From assembly GCA_002746155.1 (NCBI GenBank), contig NVWF01000009.1, positions 48,662 through 112,661 on the forward strand: 64,000 nucleotides of DNA. The letters run 5' to 3'. The position numbers and the translations under genes are program-made. Each line of letters starts with the position of its first letter. The first letter of the stretch is position 1. The notes beneath the pieces were generated by a model, which was given only the letters and a program-made list of their open reading frames with translations, did not search any database and had not been told where the DNA came from. This DNA is from Gammaproteobacteria bacterium. Lineage in GTDB: Bacteria > Pseudomonadota > Gammaproteobacteria > Enterobacterales > GCA-2746155. Positions 88-33,311 of the stretch are shown here, piece after piece.

Positions 88-1722
88 ATGCAAACAATTT
101 TTTTATTTATTTCAGCCTTAACTCTTGTGACAGTTTTCCTATTGCAGCTAGTTTGGCAACCGATTGTCTGGAGCTTGGTAATTATTCTACCGGGCATTTT
201 AATTGGCATAATAGATATCCTGCAAAACGCTCATTCTATTCGAAAAAACTTCCCGCTGATTGGTCGAATGCGTTGGCTAATGGAATCAATTCGGCCCTTC
301 ATCCGTCAGTATTTATTAGAGTCTGAAACAGATGGAACTCCGATTAGCCGAATGTTCCGCTCAATTATTTATCAGCGTGCTAAGGGAGATTTAGCAACCA
401 CTCCTCTAGGCACTAAGTTTGATACCTCTAAACTAGGATACGAATGGATAAGCCATTCTCTAGCAGCTTTTCATATTAGTAAACTCCAGGCAGTACCCAG
501 GGTGTTAATTGGTGGCACGGATTGCAAAAAACCCTACAGCGCAAGTCTATTAAATATTTCAGCAATGAGCTTTGGAGCTCTTAGCAATAATGCCATTTCA
601 GCACTCAATGGGGGCGCGAAAAAAGGCGGCTTTTATCACAATACTGGAGAAGGAGGTGTGAGCCCATATCATTTACAGGCGTCGGGTGATTTGGTCTGGC
701 AAATAGGTACTGGCTACTTTGGTTGCCGTACTTCTAAGGGAACGTTTTGCCATAAAACGTTTACTGAGGTGGCTTGCAAAGATAGTGTGAAAATGATTGA
801 AATTAAAATGTCACAAGGAGCAAAGCCTGGACATGGCGGTATCTTGCCCGGCGTAAAAAACACGCCTGAGATTGCAAAAATTCGACATTTAGAGGCCTAT
901 ACCACCGTAGACTCTCCCCCCTCTCACAGTGCTTTTTCAACACCGCTAGAAATGATGAACTTTATACAAAAATTGCGAAGCTTGTCGGGCGGAAAACCCA
1001 TCGGATTTAAGTTATGCCTTGGAAGACCTAGTGAATTTGTCGCGCTATGCAAGGCTATGATTAAGACTGGTATTAAACCCGATTTTATTACCGTTGATGG
1101 TGGTGAGGGCGGGACAGGTGCAGCACCGCTTGAATTCAGTAATTCCGTTGGCATGCCTCTAGGTGATGGCCTGGCTTTTGTCAGTGATACTCTCATCGGC
1201 TTTGGTTTAAAACGAGAGATTAAGATCATTGCATCCGGCAAAATTTTTACTGGGTTTCATCTTGTAAAAAATCTAAGTTTAGGTGCAGATCTTTGTAACA
1301 GCGCTAGGGGGATGATGCTTGCCCTAGGCTGTGTACAATCACTCATCTGTAATACCAATGAGTGTCCCACTGGTATTGCTACCCAGAAAAAGTCGCTCAC
1401 CAAGGGCTTGGTAGTGGTCAATAAGATAGACCGAGTTGCAAGATATCATCATGAAACCGTCAACTCCGTAATGGAGATTATCTCTGCCGCAGGCCTATCC
1501 TCCTTTAGCGGACTCAATAGAACTCATATTTTCAGAAGAGTGAGTCATGATGCCATTAGACGATATGATGAATTATATCCCTATCCACAGGAAGGCTGTT
1601 TACTTGCAGAGCCCTATCCTGAACGGTTTCAACTAGAGATGAGAGAAGCGACCTATGAACATTTTTTACCAAAACAATGCATTGGATGTCATGATCATGG
1701 TCTAAGTGCAATACAAGATTAG
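88..1722 (+). CDS. FMN-binding glutamate synthase family protein (GltB FMN-domain-like), N-terminally membrane anchored
   Basis: 544-aa ORF with two N-terminal hydrophobic helices. Carries GltS FMN-domain signatures (MSQGAKPGHGG, VDGGEGGTGAAP, GADLCNSARG). GGAGA Shine-Dalgarno lies just upstream of the ATG. Confidence 0.8.
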   Translation: MQTIFLFISALTLVTVFLLQLVWQPIVWSLVIILPGILIGIIDILQNAHSIRKNFPLIGRMRWLMESIRPFIRQYLLESETDGTPISRMFRSIIYQRAKGDLATTPLGTKFDTSKLGYEWISHSLAAFHISKLQAVPRVLIGGTDCKKPYSASLLNISAMSFGALSNNAISALNGGAKKGGFYHNTGEGGVSPYHLQASGDLVWQIGTGYFGCRTSKGTFCHKTFTEVACKDSVKMIEIKMSQGAKPGHGGILPGVKNTPEIAKIRHLEAYTTVDSPPSHSAFSTPLEMMNFIQKLRSLSGGKPIGFKLCLGRPSEFVALCKAMIKTGIKPDFITVDGGEGGTGAAPLEFSNSVGMPLGDGLAFVSDTLIGFGLKREIKIIASGKIFTGFHLVKNLSLGADLCNSARGMMLALGCVQSLICNTNECPTGIATQKKSLTKGLVVVNKIDRVARYHHETVNSVMEIISAAGLSSFSGLNRTHIFRRVSHDAIRRYDELYPYPQEGCLLAEPYPERFQLEMREATYEHFLPKQCIGCHDHGLSAIQD

Positions 1723-1761: not shown

Positions 1762-2592
1762 TTAAGGCACTTGAAGACGTTCGATTATATTTCTTTTCAT
1801 AATAATCGCTATGCCGTCATTTGCTGCAACCACTAGGGTCTCATCATCTTCGCGAATCAAATCACCGTTCGCTCTGTTGTGTTCAACTTGACTAATTTTT
1901 ATATTATTCACCAAAAGCACCTCACCAGCTACATCGGCTACAACACCAAATCGACCACAGGCTTTTACTAATTGATCAATTTCATTTACTGACCAGTGCC
2001 AATTTATTAAACGATCCTTTAAGGTTATTTTAGGCCAGTAACTACCACCAACTTGTTTTTTTGCAGCTTGATATAAGGCTCCAAAGTTTGTTAGCAATTG
2101 ATCGAGAAAAACAGGGATCTGCAAATGCAGCTTCATCAACAGGCTCTCCCAACTTTCATCAGCATCAAGCTTAATTGATTGTTGATAAATAATATCCCCT
2201 GTATCAAATTCCCTAGCTAGTTTATGAAAGCTAACACCCGCTTGTTCCCTATATTGTTTTAAGATCCAAATAATAGGTGTCGGTCCACGACCAAAGGGTA
2301 ATAGAGTTGGATGTACATTGATAGTATAAACATGATTTGCAACTTCAGGGATCAGCCAGGGATATTCAACAGAGAACAAGCAGTCCATACCCTCATCGAC
2401 AAGTTTATCTAGTAGTTCTTTAGTAGGTTTAGTGCTTGAAAAAGTAATGTTGTTTTTATCAGCGTAATCTCGTAACTCTTGATTAAAAGGTTTAATTTCA
2501 TTCACAAATATATGAGAAATATTGTGACCGTGATCTGTTAACACATCGATACAGCCCTTGTGCCAATCACCACCAAAATAGCCAACCTTCAT
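1762..2592 (-). CDS. Formyltransferase family protein (Fmt/ArnA N-domain-like)
   Basis: 276 aa. INVHPTLLPFGRGPTP matches the formyltransferase N/H SLLP motif, and the Asp is present in FDTGDII. Has an Fmt-like C-terminal beta domain. AAGGA RBS upstream. Confidence 0.7.
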   Translation of the reverse strand: MKVGYFGGDWHKGCIDVLTDHGHNISHIFVNEIKPFNQELRDYADKNNITFSSTKPTKELLDKLVDEGMDCLFSVEYPWLIPEVANHVYTINVHPTLLPFGRGPTPIIWILKQYREQAGVSFHKLAREFDTGDIIYQQSIKLDADESWESLLMKLHLQIPVFLDQLLTNFGALYQAAKKQVGGSYWPKITLKDRLINWHWSVNEIDQLVKACGRFGVVADVAGEVLLVNNIKISQVEHNRANGDLIREDDETLVVAANDGIAIIMKRNIIERLQVP

Positions 2593-12411: not shown

Positions 12412-13008
12412 TTAAGCATCTCTTATCAATCCAACAAAAACACCTTCAATTGAAAGCTCGTCAGGTTCAAAAGTTATGGGGTTATAGTCTTGGTTAGCCG
12501 GTAATAATACGGGACGGGGGGATTGCGAATCGAGGTATTTCACCGTTACTTCATCATCAATTCTGGCAATAACGATTTGTCCATGGCGTGCTCGCTCAGT
12601 TTTTTGTACGGCAATCATGTCACCATCGAGGATCCCAGCATCTTTCATACTGTCGCCTCGAACTCTTAGTAAATAAGTAGGTCGGCTAGAAAATAAGCCA
12701 TCGGGCACCGGTATATGTCGCTCAAGATTTTCAACAGCCGTGATTGGCGTGCCAGCAGCTACTGAACCAATGAGGGGTAGCTCATAAAAGGCTTCGGTTA
12801 AAAGTTGAATGCCTCGAGGTTTATCACTGTGTAGATGAATATGACCTTTGCGCTCAAGCGCCTTTAGGTGATCAGCAGCAGCCCTCGTTGAACTGACACC
12901 TATACCCTTAGCTAGCTCAGCATGAGTAGGCGCGATGCCGTTCACCTGTACATAATCTCTAATAACGGACAAGACTTCTGCTTGTCGTTCAGTGAGTGCC
13001 TCTGTCAT
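12412..13008 (-). CDS. lexA: LexA repressor
   Basis: 198 aa. Winged-helix N-domain (LTERQAEVLSVIRDYV...HLKALERKG), Ala-Gly cleavage site (VAAG), and Ser/Lys dyad (RGDSMKDAGI, VTVKY). Confidence 0.92.
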   Translation of the reverse strand: MTEALTERQAEVLSVIRDYVQVNGIAPTHAELAKGIGVSSTRAAADHLKALERKGHIHLHSDKPRGIQLLTEAFYELPLIGSVAAGTPITAVENLERHIPVPDGLFSSRPTYLLRVRGDSMKDAGILDGDMIAVQKTERARHGQIVIARIDDEVTVKYLDSQSPRPVLLPANQDYNPITFEPDELSIEGVFVGLIRDA

Positions 13009-13063
13009 ATAAAATTCCTTATTTTGTCTAGATGTGTATTTCCAATCTTCTTTCTTGAGTATA

Positions 13064-13083
13064 TACTACTCGTATAAGTAGTA
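13064..13083. promoter_or_regulatory. Candidate LexA operator (non-canonical dyad TACTAC-N8-GTAGTA)
   Basis: TACTACTCGTATAAGTAGTA has perfect 6-bp arms. It is the only dyad in the 104-nt lexA / Y-polymerase divergent region, 30 nt upstream of the polymerase ATG. Confidence 0.45.
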
Positions 13084-13112
13084 TTTGTACAGCGAGTATT
13101 CGGACAAGTTTA

Positions 13113-14360
13113 ATGGATCAATCTTTACCACATCACAAATGGACAAAAATGATAGCCCTTATGGATATGAATGCTTTTTTTGCGTCCATTGAACAGAAGG
13201 ATTACCCCTGGTGGCGTGGTCGCCCAGTGGCAGTGACCAACGGCAAAATTGGCACGGGGATTATCACCTGTTCCTATGAAGCTAGGGCTTTTGGTGTGCA
13301 TACTGGTATGCGTTTAGTTGAGGCGCGAAAACTTTGCCCACAACTTATCCAAGCACCAGCTAGGCCTTATCGCTATGCAGAGGTCTCACGCTCTATTATG
13401 CACTCCCTTGAAAACATCACCCCTGATCTGGAAATTTTTTCTGTGGATGAAGCCTTTCTTGATCTTAGTCATTGCCAACGTCTTTATCATTACGACCCTT
13501 GGCAAATTGGTAAGCTCATCAAGCAGGTGGTGTTTGATATCTCAGGCTTACTCTGCTCCGTTGGTTTAAGTGGTGATCGCAGTACCGCTAAATGGGCGGC
13601 AAAACAAATGAAACCTAATGGTCTGACTATTATCAAACCGGAACTTGCCGAACAGGCTCTTGCTGAGGTTTCGGTGACAGATTTGTGTGGTGTGAACAAG
13701 GGCATAGGTCGTTTTCTGGCCCAGTACGGCGTCTATCGCTGCGCTGATATGAAACACATCCCCATCAGTGTACTGGGACAGCGTTTTGGCAATCCAGGTA
13801 AGCGAATTTGGCTAATGGCTCAAGGCAAAGATCCCGAAGTGATTAACGGCCATGTGTGTGAAGCAAAAACCCTTGGCCATGGAAAAGTGATTCCACCAAA
13901 TACTACCAAAGGCCAAACTATTTTACTGTATCTGATGCATATGGCTGAAAAGGTTGCGGCGAGATTACGACTTAATCAATTGCAAGCTCAAGTTTTTTCT
14001 ATCGCTTTTAAGACGATCAATGGCTGGCAAAAAACCCGCTCTCGCACCATCTCATGCACCGATGATGGCAAGCAGATCTTCAAGCTCTGTAAGTTTTTTT
14101 TCCAACAAAAATGGCAAGGCGAAGGTGTTTTCCAAGTGCATGTAGCAGCCCTTGATCCACGCCCTGCCAGTGGACAACAGGATTTTTTTATCAAGGATGA
14201 CCAAGACCGTCAAAATCTTCATCAAATGATCGATAAGATCAATCATCGTTACGGAGAATTCACCCTCTGTAACGCCCCTCTACTTAATCGTTCTAGCATG
14301 CCCAATGTTATCGCTCCAGCCTGGAAGCCCGATGGTCATCGCAATACGCTAGAGCACTGA
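13113..14360 (+). CDS. Y-family DNA polymerase (DinB/UmuC superfamily), catalytic residues intact
   Basis: 415 aa. MDMNAFFASIE and FSVDEAFLD carry the catalytic D and DE residues. Also GLLCSVGLSGDRSTAKWA. An alternative start at 13149 (MIALMDMN) is possible. Confidence 0.85.
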   Translation: MDQSLPHHKWTKMIALMDMNAFFASIEQKDYPWWRGRPVAVTNGKIGTGIITCSYEARAFGVHTGMRLVEARKLCPQLIQAPARPYRYAEVSRSIMHSLENITPDLEIFSVDEAFLDLSHCQRLYHYDPWQIGKLIKQVVFDISGLLCSVGLSGDRSTAKWAAKQMKPNGLTIIKPELAEQALAEVSVTDLCGVNKGIGRFLAQYGVYRCADMKHIPISVLGQRFGNPGKRIWLMAQGKDPEVINGHVCEAKTLGHGKVIPPNTTKGQTILLYLMHMAEKVAARLRLNQLQAQVFSIAFKTINGWQKTRSRTISCTDDGKQIFKLCKFFFQQKWQGEGVFQVHVAALDPRPASGQQDFFIKDDQDRQNLHQMIDKINHRYGEFTLCNAPLLNRSSMPNVIAPAWKPDGHRNTLEH

Positions 14361-14375
14361 AGAGGATTTGATTGA

Positions 14376-14792
14376 ATGTGTCGCGCAGCCCGTTTCCAAT
14401 TTGAAGGTCGTCGTTTTGAATATTATTTTACCCAGTACCGGGCAAGATTACCTCTCTTATTACAAACTGGACATTGCTCTTTGGTAACGTGGGGACGTAG
14501 ACGTAATGAGTCGGGTGGTTTTCCCTTTGGCGCCAGTGTGCGTCTTGCTTCAATCCAAGCGGGACATTGGGACGCTCTTCAACCTAAACCTGTAAAAATT
14601 GCCATCCCTGAATTTATGGAAACTGATGTAATGGGACATGAACATTGGTTTCAGGTGATGGCTGGGCAATACCTTCAGGGAATGCTTGCCCAAAAAGGTA
14701 ATCAACTAAGGGTCTATACGGTGCAGCTTGATTGTAATGCTGAGGATACTTTTTTTGAGAATTGGCCAAGGATTGTTAACTCACCTTTTTAG
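14376..14792 (+). CDS. Hypothetical 138-aa protein starting Met-Cys; possible minimal SRAP/YedK-like protein
   Basis: GAGGA RBS 9 nt upstream, 15 nt after the polymerase stop. N-terminus is MCRAARF. Motif order loosely parallels the SRAP family (see findings). Confidence 0.5.
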   Translation: MCRAARFQFEGRRFEYYFTQYRARLPLLLQTGHCSLVTWGRRRNESGGFPFGASVRLASIQAGHWDALQPKPVKIAIPEFMETDVMGHEHWFQVMAGQYLQGMLAQKGNQLRVYTVQLDCNAEDTFFENWPRIVNSPF

Positions 14793-14794
14793 AT

Positions 14795-15547
14795 TTAAGC
14801 AACTTTCTTATTCACCTCCGCGCATTTGTATAAATTAACTACACATTCCTGGGCAACTTTAAAATCCAGCTGATGATCATGAAGTGGTCGTCCTATGACA
14901 ATGCCCGCCAGTCTCTGTTCATTTGCTTTTTCAAGTGCTTCAAGATCTGCAATGCAGCTAATGCCTCCGTTAGCAATAACAGGAATATTCAATGCAGATG
15001 CTAGCTCACAAGAAGCCTGAATGTTGCACTCATTAACACGACCATAATCGGGAATTTCCGTGAGCATGACTCCAGAAACCCCCTGCTCTTCAAAGTCTTT
15101 TGCTAGGGTGATGAGATCGTGACTCTGTTTTTGTCCTCGAAATTTCACCTCACCCTTGTGGGAATCAAATGCCACCATCACAGAACCTGAATATTGCATA
15201 CACATTTCACCGATAAAACCCTCTCGACAAATAGCCCGGGAATTCATTACCAAATACTTGGCGCCAGCATCGAGCCAAATAAGTAAGTCTTGCTCTCTAC
15301 AAATACCACCTATTTGAATCTCAAGTTGTGGATAACGGCGGTGAATTTTAGCAATTTGATGAAAATTAACAGGAGCCCTAGCGCGGATGGAATCAACATC
15401 AACAACATGAATACGTTTTGCACCAGCCTCCACCCAAAATTCTACGGCTTCCATAGGATCTTCACTGATCACAACGTCACCATCTTCTTGATGCTGGGTG
15501 TAGACACTACGTTTTGATTTCAATTCCATAACGGGGACTAATAACAT
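14795..15547 (-). CDS. HisA/HisF-family TIM-barrel protein (orphan paralogue)
   Basis: 250 aa and alignable to HisA along its length (HVVDVD, IQIGGI, VIANGGISCIADLEAL, GIVIGRPL). The first catalytic Asp position reads Glu (VMEL). No other his genes are nearby. Confidence 0.7.
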   Translation of the reverse strand: MLLVPVMELKSKRSVYTQHQEDGDVVISEDPMEAVEFWVEAGAKRIHVVDVDSIRARAPVNFHQIAKIHRRYPQLEIQIGGICREQDLLIWLDAGAKYLVMNSRAICREGFIGEMCMQYSGSVMVAFDSHKGEVKFRGQKQSHDLITLAKDFEEQGVSGVMLTEIPDYGRVNECNIQASCELASALNIPVIANGGISCIADLEALEKANEQRLAGIVIGRPLHDHQLDFKVAQECVVNLYKCAEVNKKVA

Positions 15548-32190: not shown

Positions 32191-33311
32191 TAGCAGCTAT
32201 CATTCGAAAAGAGTTATTACAACTGCGTCGTGATCCCAGACTTATTGGGTTGATCCTTGTAATGCCAATGGTTTTACTCATTTTATTTGGCGTTGCTCTA
32301 AAGCTAGAACCCAAAAATGTACAAATGGCATATGTTGATAACGATCAGTCTATCTTCTCAAATTTAATAAAAACAGGATTATGGAGTGATGGCTATTTTA
32401 AATTATACAAGGTGAATACCCGCCAAGATATTATTGAAGAAATGCGAGCCGGTCGCGCAAAAGCTGGATTATTTATCGCTAATGACTTTACAGCCTTGCT
32501 CATTGAAAATGCCCAGCCACATATTACCTTTTATGTTGATGGCACTATGCCTTCTCTGACAACCGCAATGAAATATCACTCAGGCAATGCAACCGATAAG
32601 GGGGTAACATCTGATATGTATTTTTCAGATCCTGATGCTGAAAATATCGTTATAGCCGATGAGCCGTTTATTATGGATACAGAGATTTTATTTAACCCCG
32701 ATGAAATAGAAACCTGGTTCTTTTTACCTGGCATCATTGGAGTTTTGATTATGCAAATTGCGTTAATCTTAACCGGTATCTCGGTTGTCCGTGAACATGA
32801 AAAAAAGACACTTGAGCAGTTGCTAGTAACGCCCTTGAGCAACACAACTTTTATTCTTGGTAAATTGATACCTTATATTGTTATCGCTCTAGCAGATTTT
32901 TACTTCATCCTTGGAGCTGGTTGGCTTTTGTTTGATTTACCACAACCGTCTTCTCATCTACCCTTGTTTATTTTAGCGTTAACTTATGTAGCAGTGATGA
33001 TATCTTTAGGCTTGTTAATTTCACTGATTGCAAAAACACAACAGCAAGCCATGTTTTTTGCTATCTTTATTATTATTCCCTCTATTTTATTGTCAGGCCT
33101 AATTTTTCCAATTGAAGCAATACCTGAAATGGTCAGACCAGTCAGTTATATCATTCCATTCACTTATTTTGTAGAAATAATAAGAGGGCTATTAATTAAA
33201 CAGACCTTAATTATCGATTTGACGGTTTCCTTTATAGCACTTATCGGTTTTGCAGTGGTTTTTGTGACTGCCAGTATTCTCATGTTTAGAAAAACGCTAC
33301 AAACTGTCTAG
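32187..33311 (+). CDS. ABC-2 type transporter permease
   Basis: 374 aa. ATGA start/stop overlap with the ATPase gene. N-terminal TM, a large periplasmic loop, and 5 C-terminal TM helices. Confidence 0.8.
   Translation: MIAAIIRKELLQLRRDPRLIGLILVMPMVLLILFGVALKLEPKNVQMAYVDNDQSIFSNLIKTGLWSDGYFKLYKVNTRQDIIEEMRAGRAKAGLFIANDFTALLIENAQPHITFYVDGTMPSLTTAMKYHSGNATDKGVTSDMYFSDPDAENIVIADEPFIMDTEILFNPDEIETWFFLPGIIGVLIMQIALILTGISVVREHEKKTLEQLLVTPLSNTTFILGKLIPYIVIALADFYFILGAGWLLFDLPQPSSHLPLFILALTYVAVMISLGLLISLIAKTQQQAMFFAIFIIIPSILLSGLIFPIEAIPEMVRPVSYIIPFTYFVEIIRGLLIKQTLIIDLTVSFIALIGFAVVFVTASILMFRKTLQTV

Follow-up and report, generated by a model that had tools for sequence, protein, structure and literature searches.

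A 138-residue protein encoded behind a Y-family DNA polymerase as a probable minimal relative of SRAP in a candidate SOS operon

We analyzed a short open reading frame (ORF) that lies directly downstream of a Y-family DNA polymerase gene in a 64,000-nucleotide (nt) stretch of contig NVWF01000009.1 from a gammaproteobacterial genome (assembly GCA_002746155.1; the whole stretch is called the window here). An initial annotation, made from the sequence, had proposed that its 138-residue product is a miniaturised SRAP/YedK-like module, and as far as homology is concerned this proposal is supported by profile-profile comparison, by structure and by the conservation of the gene pair. The window protein is very probably a homologue of the SRAP superfamily, and the family to which it belongs, called mini-SRAP below, is a distant, minimal branch of that superfamily. 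It is also likely, at a slightly lower level of confidence, that the protein and the polymerase work as one unit controlled by the SOS response. As an overall explanation we propose a minimal SRAP member whose gene ends a two-gene operon repressed by LexA and shared with the organism's only Y-family polymerase, and we give this explanation a probability of about 0.5. Covalent chemistry at abasic (AP) sites by the window protein itself, as judged from its residues, falls somewhat short of even odds.

The fold was examined with an AlphaFold2 model built without templates from alignment A2, which holds 111 rows of the family, was seeded from the window protein and over-represents its neighbourhood. 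The model reached a pLDDT (predicted local distance difference test) of 91.6 and a pTM (predicted template modelling score) of 0.86. A Foldseek search listed 17 rows down to rank 20, all of them SRAP structures (HMCES, YedK, BT_1218, Atu5096, BB2244 and Q7WLM8) with probability 0.96-1.00 and TMq 0.48-0.60, and the next matches dropped to a probability of 0.16 or less; the structural check suggested in the initial annotation thus returned SRAP structures only. When 1000 chains were re-aligned with VIA, 21 chains from 15 entries had Z≥8 and all were SRAP, with Z of 8.4-10.0 and a root-mean-square deviation of 3.2-4.2 Å over 125-135 of the 138 residues, while the next Z was 2.1. The superposition places model residues 2..138 on YedK residues 2..171, with residue 2 on residue 2. 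In a search independent of Foldseek that covered 48,161 chains, six chains had Z≥5, again all SRAP, and the next value was 2.7. As modelled, the protein consists of the SRAP beta-core; the N-terminal insert of ~13 residues is missing, as is everything beyond SRAP position ~171.

Profile comparison led to the same superfamily. The A2 alignment was compared by hhalign with 24 canonical SRAPs (214-240 residues) drawn from genomes belonging to the same class, which gave a probability of 92.2 (E 5.9e-7) in local mode and 94.4 (E 1.8e-8) in global mode, with residues 1-138 on SRAP 1-171; the reversed-query control gave a probability of 0.5. The alignments are colinear across 118-138 columns and follow the same motif order in both families, namely MC..., WG, ARxE(S/T)(I/V), (F/Y)xE, (V/I)T and xxRxPxI. 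The three correspondences drawn up in the initial annotation, LPLLL..WG with the SRAP WGL strand, KIAIPEFME with RCLxPAxGFYEW, and YTVQL..ENWPRIV with FTIxT..HDRMPVIL, were reproduced by hhalign, and the size deficit noted there is also real (138 residues against 214-240). A Pfam scan of the 111 family rows matched PF02586 in 11 rows at E≤1 (best 4.3e-6), and no other Pfam family matched more than two rows. Ten of the PF02586 matches were re-scanned and are colinear (for example, family residues 15-138 on profile positions 31-168) at 11.9-20.5 bits, all under the gathering threshold of 27.1 bits.

The ORF is a real, conserved gene under purifying selection. The polymerase ORF stops with the TGA at 14358-14360 and is followed by a 15-nt spacer (14361-14375), in which GAGGA lies 9 nt 5' of the ATG, so the layout agrees with the initial description of an ORF 15 nt past the polymerase stop with its own ribosome-binding site (Table 1). 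Since an in-frame TGA (14373-14375) abuts the ATG, a longer N-terminus is impossible and the product starts with Met-Cys, the Cys being residue 2; the reading MCRAARF for the start is therefore correct. A site scan of the junction between the polymerase and the mini-SRAP ORF found nothing that resembles a promoter or a terminator. In comparison with the orthologue of a same-genus genome (L002), pN is 0.069 versus a pS of 0.808, the latter being saturated. A word-indexed search found 11 close relatives at 55-90% identity, eight of them 138 residues long, and an exhaustive phmmer search of 1.84 billion cluster representatives found 296 matches at E≤1e-3 and 136 at E≤1e-10, mostly of 130-160 residues. 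The family profile matches 44 out of 400 sampled genomes of the class at E≤1e-5, a count that takes in the window's own genome and G335 (flagged unpublished), and a pattern scan places the family in 279 species-level genomes. The database name is 'hypothetical protein' in every named source record and in the RefSeq plasmid records. No match to the family was found in the phage collection searched, and the sequencing-run search listed six DNA records from two metagenome studies and no RNA record.

Table 1. Features of the window that bear on the mini-SRAP gene.
Feature	Position in window	Strand	Basis
lexA, divergent from the polymerase operon	12412..13008	-	PF01726 1.9e-21, PF00717 7.7e-34
Promoter-like TTTCCA-17-TATACT for the polymerase operon	13039..13067	+	consensus match only
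38-nt block identical in the window and same-genus L002; contains the palindrome	13062..13099	.	DNA alignment A5; flanks diverge
Candidate LexA operator TACTACTCGTATAAGTAGTA (TACTAC-N8-GTAGTA)	13064..13083	.	inverted repeat, 8-nt arms, 100% complementary
Y-family DNA polymerase, 415 residues	13113..14360	+	PF00817 8.8e-38, PF11799 5.5e-11
GAGGA ribosome-binding site	14362..14366	+	read from sequence
Mini-SRAP gene, 138 residues, last gene of the operon	14376..14792	+	ORF
Cys2 codon, SRAP nucleophile position	14379..14381	+	VIA residue 2 on 2; global hhalign MC/MC
Ser54 codon, position of SRAP Asn (INAR motif; YedK Asn75)	14535..14537	+	hhalign mapping
Glu82 codon, position of SRAP catalytic Glu (GFYEW; YedK Glu105)	14619..14621	+	hhalign mapping
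Phe127 codon, position of SRAP catalytic His (HDRMP; YedK His160)	14754..14756	+	hhalign mapping
HisA/HisF-family gene, convergent downstream neighbour	14795..15547	-	

A number of results weigh against the SRAP reading. The window protein matches no Pfam or NCBIfam family at E≤10, PF02586 included, and hence does not belong to PF02586 by its gathering threshold; the orthologues from L003 and L006 likewise match no Pfam family at E≤10. The profile check against PF02586 proposed in the initial annotation was thus divided, as the direct HMMER scan was empty at E≤10 and the support came from hhalign at 92-94% probability. When the family profiles A1 and A2 were run by hmmsearch against all PDB sequences, no SRAP was found at E≤10 and only the RCC1-like repeats of BLIP-II matched (E 6e-5 to 2.5e-4). 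Compared with canonical SRAPs, moreover, ~50 C-terminal residues, which include the C-terminal helical region, and the N-terminal insert are missing from a family of ~135 residues. One could argue from the silent Pfam model and from the BLIP-II match, which runs via a WG..P...I.aG.W repeat, that the SRAP similarity is spurious and that the gene encodes an unrelated small SOS protein such as a single RCC1-like blade. We consider this highly improbable: the BLIP-II score adds up a number of weak matches of its repeats to a single 40-residue segment (family residues 29-76), the exhaustive structure search found only SRAP above Z 2.7, and the hhalign probability of 92-94% stands against 0.5% for the reversed control. 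The stretch in question, WGRR...LP.GGWA.L..I..G.W in A1 and A2, scores on each blade of the BLIP-II propeller to a summed value of ~1e-4, and the match is probably a convergent WG/aG.W strand-turn-strand pattern. An RCC1-like/BLIP-II propeller identity was rejected, as the structure search gave no propeller above Z 2.7. We conclude that mini-SRAP is a superfamily relative of SRAP that lies outside PF02586 by Pfam's criterion.

The other results on this side concern the active site. The window protein lacks the SRAP His, the SRAP Asn and the Arg of the HDRMP motif: the Asn75 position of YedK is Ser here and Trp in the mini-SRAP family, the His160 position is Phe here and keeps its His in only part of the family (the initial annotation was right that the His is not conserved), and the HDRMP Arg is replaced by Asn129 in a column with Arg in 50 of 111 rows. 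Of the four canonical active-site residues, the window protein has another residue at two positions. Across A2, Cys2 is absent in 25 of the 111 rows, the Glu82 column has Glu in only 57, the His column is divided among Phe (27), Tyr (27) and His (26), and the INAR Asn column holds Trp (56), Cys (13) and Ser (9), Asn not being among the residues listed. None of Cys2, Glu/Asp and His is present in 17 rows, which means that part of the family cannot crosslink as YedK does. The expectation that Cys2 would be retained in relatives was borne out for close relatives, with Cys in 10 of the 11 rows that have an N-terminus and Ser in the other one, and failed in the 25 wider rows without it.

What the window protein does share with SRAP is the N-terminal Met-Cys and the catalytic Glu, and it also keeps the INAR Arg as Arg56 after Ala (column Arg 45, Lys 11 of 111). 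Cys is found at position 2 in 86 out of 111 rows. When the rows were sorted by their Cys2, Glu/Asp and His states, 20 had all three, 33 had Cys and Glu/Asp only (the type of the window protein), 29 had Cys only, six Glu/Asp only, four Cys and His, and two Glu/Asp and His. Glu/Asp is present in 53 of the 86 rows with Cys2 versus 8 of the 25 rows without. In 80 loci of the mainstream subfamily Cys2 and Glu are found in 80/80 and His in 76/80; these loci come from species-representative genomes, were picked with the pattern GGWAR[LH][ED]S[IV] and were ordered by similarity to an alignment in which every member has the triad, so that the figures describe a biased sample, not the triad frequency of the whole family, which counts against their use for the family at large. 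Judged by its sequences, a large mainstream subfamily keeps the Cys/Glu/His triad.

Mutants of YedK give a scale for these replacements. It has been reported that Cys2 is required and that Glu105 is the next most important residue, that H160A/Q lowers the rate ~10-fold and matters less for 3'-PUA ends, and that the reaction at internal AP sites is affected only modestly by N75A (PMC9436759). By these data the window protein has retained the pair with the greatest weight, Cys2 and Glu, and is without the ring-opening His, and AP-site crosslinking in its clade is plausibly attenuated. A different use of the same residues was proposed from the set of Cys, His and Glu and from the SOS setting: SRAP would be a thiol autopeptidase that activates repair by cutting itself or a partner (PMC3765255). 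It has very little probability here, because the window protein lacks the His, and because active-site mutants of YedK are still without Met1 and the residues are explained by AP-site chemistry (PMC9436759).

Next, we examined the linkage to the polymerase. Conservation of the polymerase/Met-Cys ORF pair in related genomes, suggested as a check in the initial annotation, was found in two sets. Of the 35 loci in the first genome sample, 30 have the polymerase orthologue immediately upstream and in the same orientation; the five without it are L029, L038 (a short contig), L044, L051 and L052. Of the 80 loci in the second set, 72 have it next to mini-SRAP (<300 nt) and another five at a distance of 300-1400 nt; it is absent in L110 and L137, and L162 is too short to judge, so that 77 of 79 assessable loci are linked. 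The two genes overlap at start and stop or are separated by 0-35 nt in most loci, across many gammaproteobacterial families. A full-length lexA is co-directional upstream of the polymerase in 30 of the 80 loci, and a Methylophaga thalassica plasmid in RefSeq carries overlapping genes for lexA, 'DNA polymerase IV' and a hypothetical protein. No conserved gene was found downstream of mini-SRAP in the 80 loci.

Such tight spacing bears on the possibility that the protein is a free-standing YedK-like shield of AP sites that SOS merely co-regulates with the polymerase, with no physical or mechanistic coupling between the two. Canonical SRAPs do act alone in vitro (PMC9436759), some family members have no neighbouring polymerase, and eight genomes (G067, G084, G095, G099, G138, G142, G145 and G158) carry mini-SRAP together with a canonical SRAP, so that SRAP function is compatible with a separate gene; the canonical-SRAP list itself covers 31 of 121 genomes, G079 (flagged unpublished) among them. 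Nevertheless, we find an uncoupled shield improbable in view of the overlap or 0-35 nt gap to the polymerase in most loci and the lack of a conserved third gene. The coexistence in eight genomes indicates that mini-SRAP is not simply a replacement of the canonical protein, and it argues for a specialised, non-redundant role. The window's genome also encodes a 156-residue protein of canonical type (MCGRF..., PF02586 76.5 bits; L007:1480-1950, minus strand, = G000:C26). It matches PF02586 in two stretches, with residues 60-148 on profile positions 105-200, and apparently lacks the middle INAR Asn/Arg segment, so that the organism would have two SRAP-related proteins, each shortened in its own way.

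A few members depart from the usual arrangement. In the related genomes L023 (~1939-2349, minus strand) and L026 (~857-1384, plus strand) a small ORF, which from its sequence by eye we take to be DUF559-like, stands between polymerase and mini-SRAP. On the conjugative Pseudomonas plasmid pXWY (NZ_CP026333.1; L090 5019-5429) a family member directly follows a gene of the MbcA/ParS/Xre antitoxin family with no polymerase nearby, a context that differs from the SOS cassette. Several long proteins, P0075, P0078, P0093, P0125, P0126 and P0050 (508-610 residues) and P0030 (248 residues), all from short metagenome contigs, carry a C-terminal mini-SRAP domain; the long mini-SRAP proteins show N-terminal transmembrane segments, a coiled-coil-like region and weak matches to GntR/IclR-type winged helices (E 0.003-0.1).

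The regulation of the operon was examined at the level of DNA sites. The divergent lexA is the only match to LexA_DNA_bind (PF01726) in the window's assembly (G000). The lexA-polymerase intergenic region contains the palindrome ATACTACT-N6-AGTAGTAT, whose 20-nt form TACTAC-N8-GTAGTA occurs without mismatch exactly twice in the 3.52-Mb assembly, here and ~190 nt upstream of the recA ATG, where the sequence reads ATACTACTCATGCAAGTAGTAT (L083 ~2491-2510; G000:C13:64960-64979). At the sequence level, a LexA regulon thus has a candidate operator common to recA and lexA/polymerase, and the lexA-controlled transcription unit of the initial annotation gains support from it. The -10-like TATACT upstream of the polymerase overlaps the palindrome; the promoter consensus scan found two sites versus 3.5 expected in shuffles. 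CTGT-N8-ACAG is the consensus of the gammaproteobacterial LexA box, and this canonical form has a single match in the window, at 33304, versus 0.87 expected, with none near the operon. We infer that the TACTAC-N8-GTAGTA palindrome is the LexA operator of this organism, a variant of CTGT-N8-ACAG, and that lexA, the polymerase and the mini-SRAP ORF would all be SOS-controlled. The occurrence of only two perfect operator-like copies (recA and lexA/polymerase) suggests a very small SOS regulon.

Weaker forms of the site were set aside. The loose pattern CTAC-N8-GTAG is not enriched genome-wide (33 sites versus 83 in the backwards control), so only the 20-nt form is informative, and a copy of the palindrome with one mismatch at G000:C45 was dropped, as it lies between transporter-like and oadB-like genes. 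Cassettes headed by lexA are different: CTGT/CTAC-type boxes were found upstream in 0 of 29, and GTTC-N7-GTTC and/or GAAC-N7-GAAC occurs within 140 nt upstream of lexA in 20 of the 29 (L108, L109, L112, L114, L126 and 15 more), with four such sites elsewhere in the same loci in 249,340 nt. We take the GTTC-N7-GTTC direct repeat to be the LexA box known from Caulobacter and other Alphaproteobacteria. Repeats of alphaproteobacterial type on gammaproteobacterial cassettes hint at a LexA paralogue specific to the cassette.

The polymerase has a DinB-like catalytic core and is the only match to the IMS family (PF00817) in the window's assembly, which is 89.9% complete. None of the NCBIfam Pol IV models reaches its cut-off on it (best 225.8 versus 381 bits), and UmuC scores 85.2 bits. 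D18, D112 and E113 are presumably the catalytic carboxylates and the QxDLF-like segment (Q355, F359) presumably the clamp-binding motif known from DinB proteins. In 25 orthologues (alignment A4) this segment and the C-terminal tail are invariant or nearly so, and M396, P397, V399, I400, P402, W404, P406, G408 and R410 are invariant. The invariant tail peptide MPxVIxPxWxPxGxR (window 14298-14342, residues ~396-410) is a candidate partner-docking motif. Residues 367-385 match DUF4113 weakly (PF13438, E 0.048), and it is in DUF4113 that the RecA-NT motif has been located (PMC6511836).

The polymerase features are also what one may expect if mini-SRAP, without covalent chemistry, were a small regulatory subunit in a Pol V-like mutasome made of Y-family polymerase (PolY), SRAP-like protein and RecA, comparable with UmuD' or YolD. 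The SRAP core would then serve as a module that binds the polymerase or single-stranded DNA (ssDNA), and Cys2 would be a relic or restricted to certain lineages. The link between SRAP-like proteins and PolY was stated briefly in 2026 (PMC12926913, Nucleic Acids Res): a UmuC-SRAP-RecA module is listed there with AlphaFold models above the ipTM thresholds of that study, in which a small SRAP-related protein stands beside a Y-family polymerase with a RecA-NT/DUF4113-type C-terminus and is proposed as its polymerase-binding small subunit, and SRAP-like proteins are counted among 'putative PolY-binding regulatory subunits'. The weak DUF4113 match, the invariant C-terminal tail as a possible docking peptide and the very tight linkage to the polymerase all fit, as does the conservation of fold-determining residues although 25 of 111 rows lack Cys2 and 17 lack all three residues. 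We rate the mutasome subunit, the strongest of the rival readings, as possible, at odds well below even. The near-invariant Cys/Glu/His of the mainstream subfamily is hard to explain without chemistry, and Cys loss tends to accompany Glu loss, which suggests joint action where the two are kept. In addition, mini-SRAP occurs without the polymerase in 5/35 and 2/79 loci, and the plasmid copy stands beside an Xre-family gene. The published SRAP-like group can be likened to mini-SRAP by description only, as the text of PMC12926913 gives no size, residues or family definition; its polymerases are called UmuC-like, whereas the window polymerase scores 225.8 bits with Pol IV versus 85.2 with UmuC. 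A complex prediction for the polymerase (A4) and the family (A2) scored 0.00 in both runs, in which the controls were not folded, and speaks neither for nor against binding.

The explanation that we prefer, a minimal SRAP member acting with its polymerase in a LexA-repressed operon, would work as follows. DNA damage would lead to LexA cleavage and to derepression of polymerase and mini-SRAP, and removal of Met1 would expose Cys2. The protein would then bind ssDNA at abasic or aldehydic lesions beside a stalled replisome and, together with the cognate polymerase, either form a Cys2-dependent covalent adduct (a thiazolidine or a Schiff base) or hold the lesion. Slower chemistry than that of YedK would be expected in the window's clade because Phe127 replaces the ring-opening His and Asn129 the DNA-contacting Arg of HDRMP. 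Lesion binding and the role of a mutasome subunit can be combined. A tentative reading, which we would not call likely, is that lexA-PolY-miniSRAP is a distinct, widespread SOS cassette with a 135-residue SRAP core as the lesion-sensing subunit of the polymerase, where Cys2 would mark AP sites (semi-)covalently and hand them over directly, with shielding and bypass in one complex. If so, the His-to-Phe and Arg-to-Asn replacements and the lineages without Cys2 would be steps to a non-covalent regulator.

Apart from its likeness to the UmuC-SRAP-RecA module, mini-SRAP can be placed among known systems in two ways. The first is by fold and context: an association of full-length SRAPs with DinB and LexA was described in 2013 (PMC3765255), and the SOS/translesion gene context is common to both families. 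The differences lie in size, in the active-site positions given above, in the invisibility of the window protein to the PF02586 hidden Markov model (HMM) and in the presence of both proteins in eight genomes. The second is by operon type. Like umuDC (Pol V) and lexA-imuA-imuB-dnaE2, the cassette combines a LexA-controlled translesion polymerase with a small accessory gene, and lexA heads the lexA-imuA-imuB-dnaE2 operon (PMC3765255) as it does in 30/80 mini-SRAP loci; here, however, the accessory protein has a SRAP fold, in contrast to the S24 peptidase of UmuD, the RecA-like ImuA and the beta-barrel of ImuB-C. In searches that covered 8.1 million PMC papers and 0.36 million preprints, no SRAP core of ~135 residues, no such residue pattern and no lexA-PolY-miniSRAP cassette was found; SRAP-like partners of polymerases were mentioned only in PMC12926913, and the figures and data files 2-4 of PMC12926913 may hold more. 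At its other end the mini-SRAP gene meets the convergent HisA/HisF-family gene, the two stops being 2 nt apart (14792-14795); no terminator-like hairpin was found between them.

SRAP proteins such as YedK and HMCES have been studied as stand-alone shields of abasic sites, and how a shielded lesion is handed over to translesion synthesis is still an open question. A SRAP core that is wired to one polymerase clade, often together with lexA, offers a compact natural system for testing this hand-over. The natural variation of the family, with Cys/Glu/His complete, with His lost or with all three lost, amounts to a ready-made mutational series. Because these genes are named 'hypothetical protein' and are missed by Pfam's SRAP model, a family HMM would also improve the annotation of SOS regulons.

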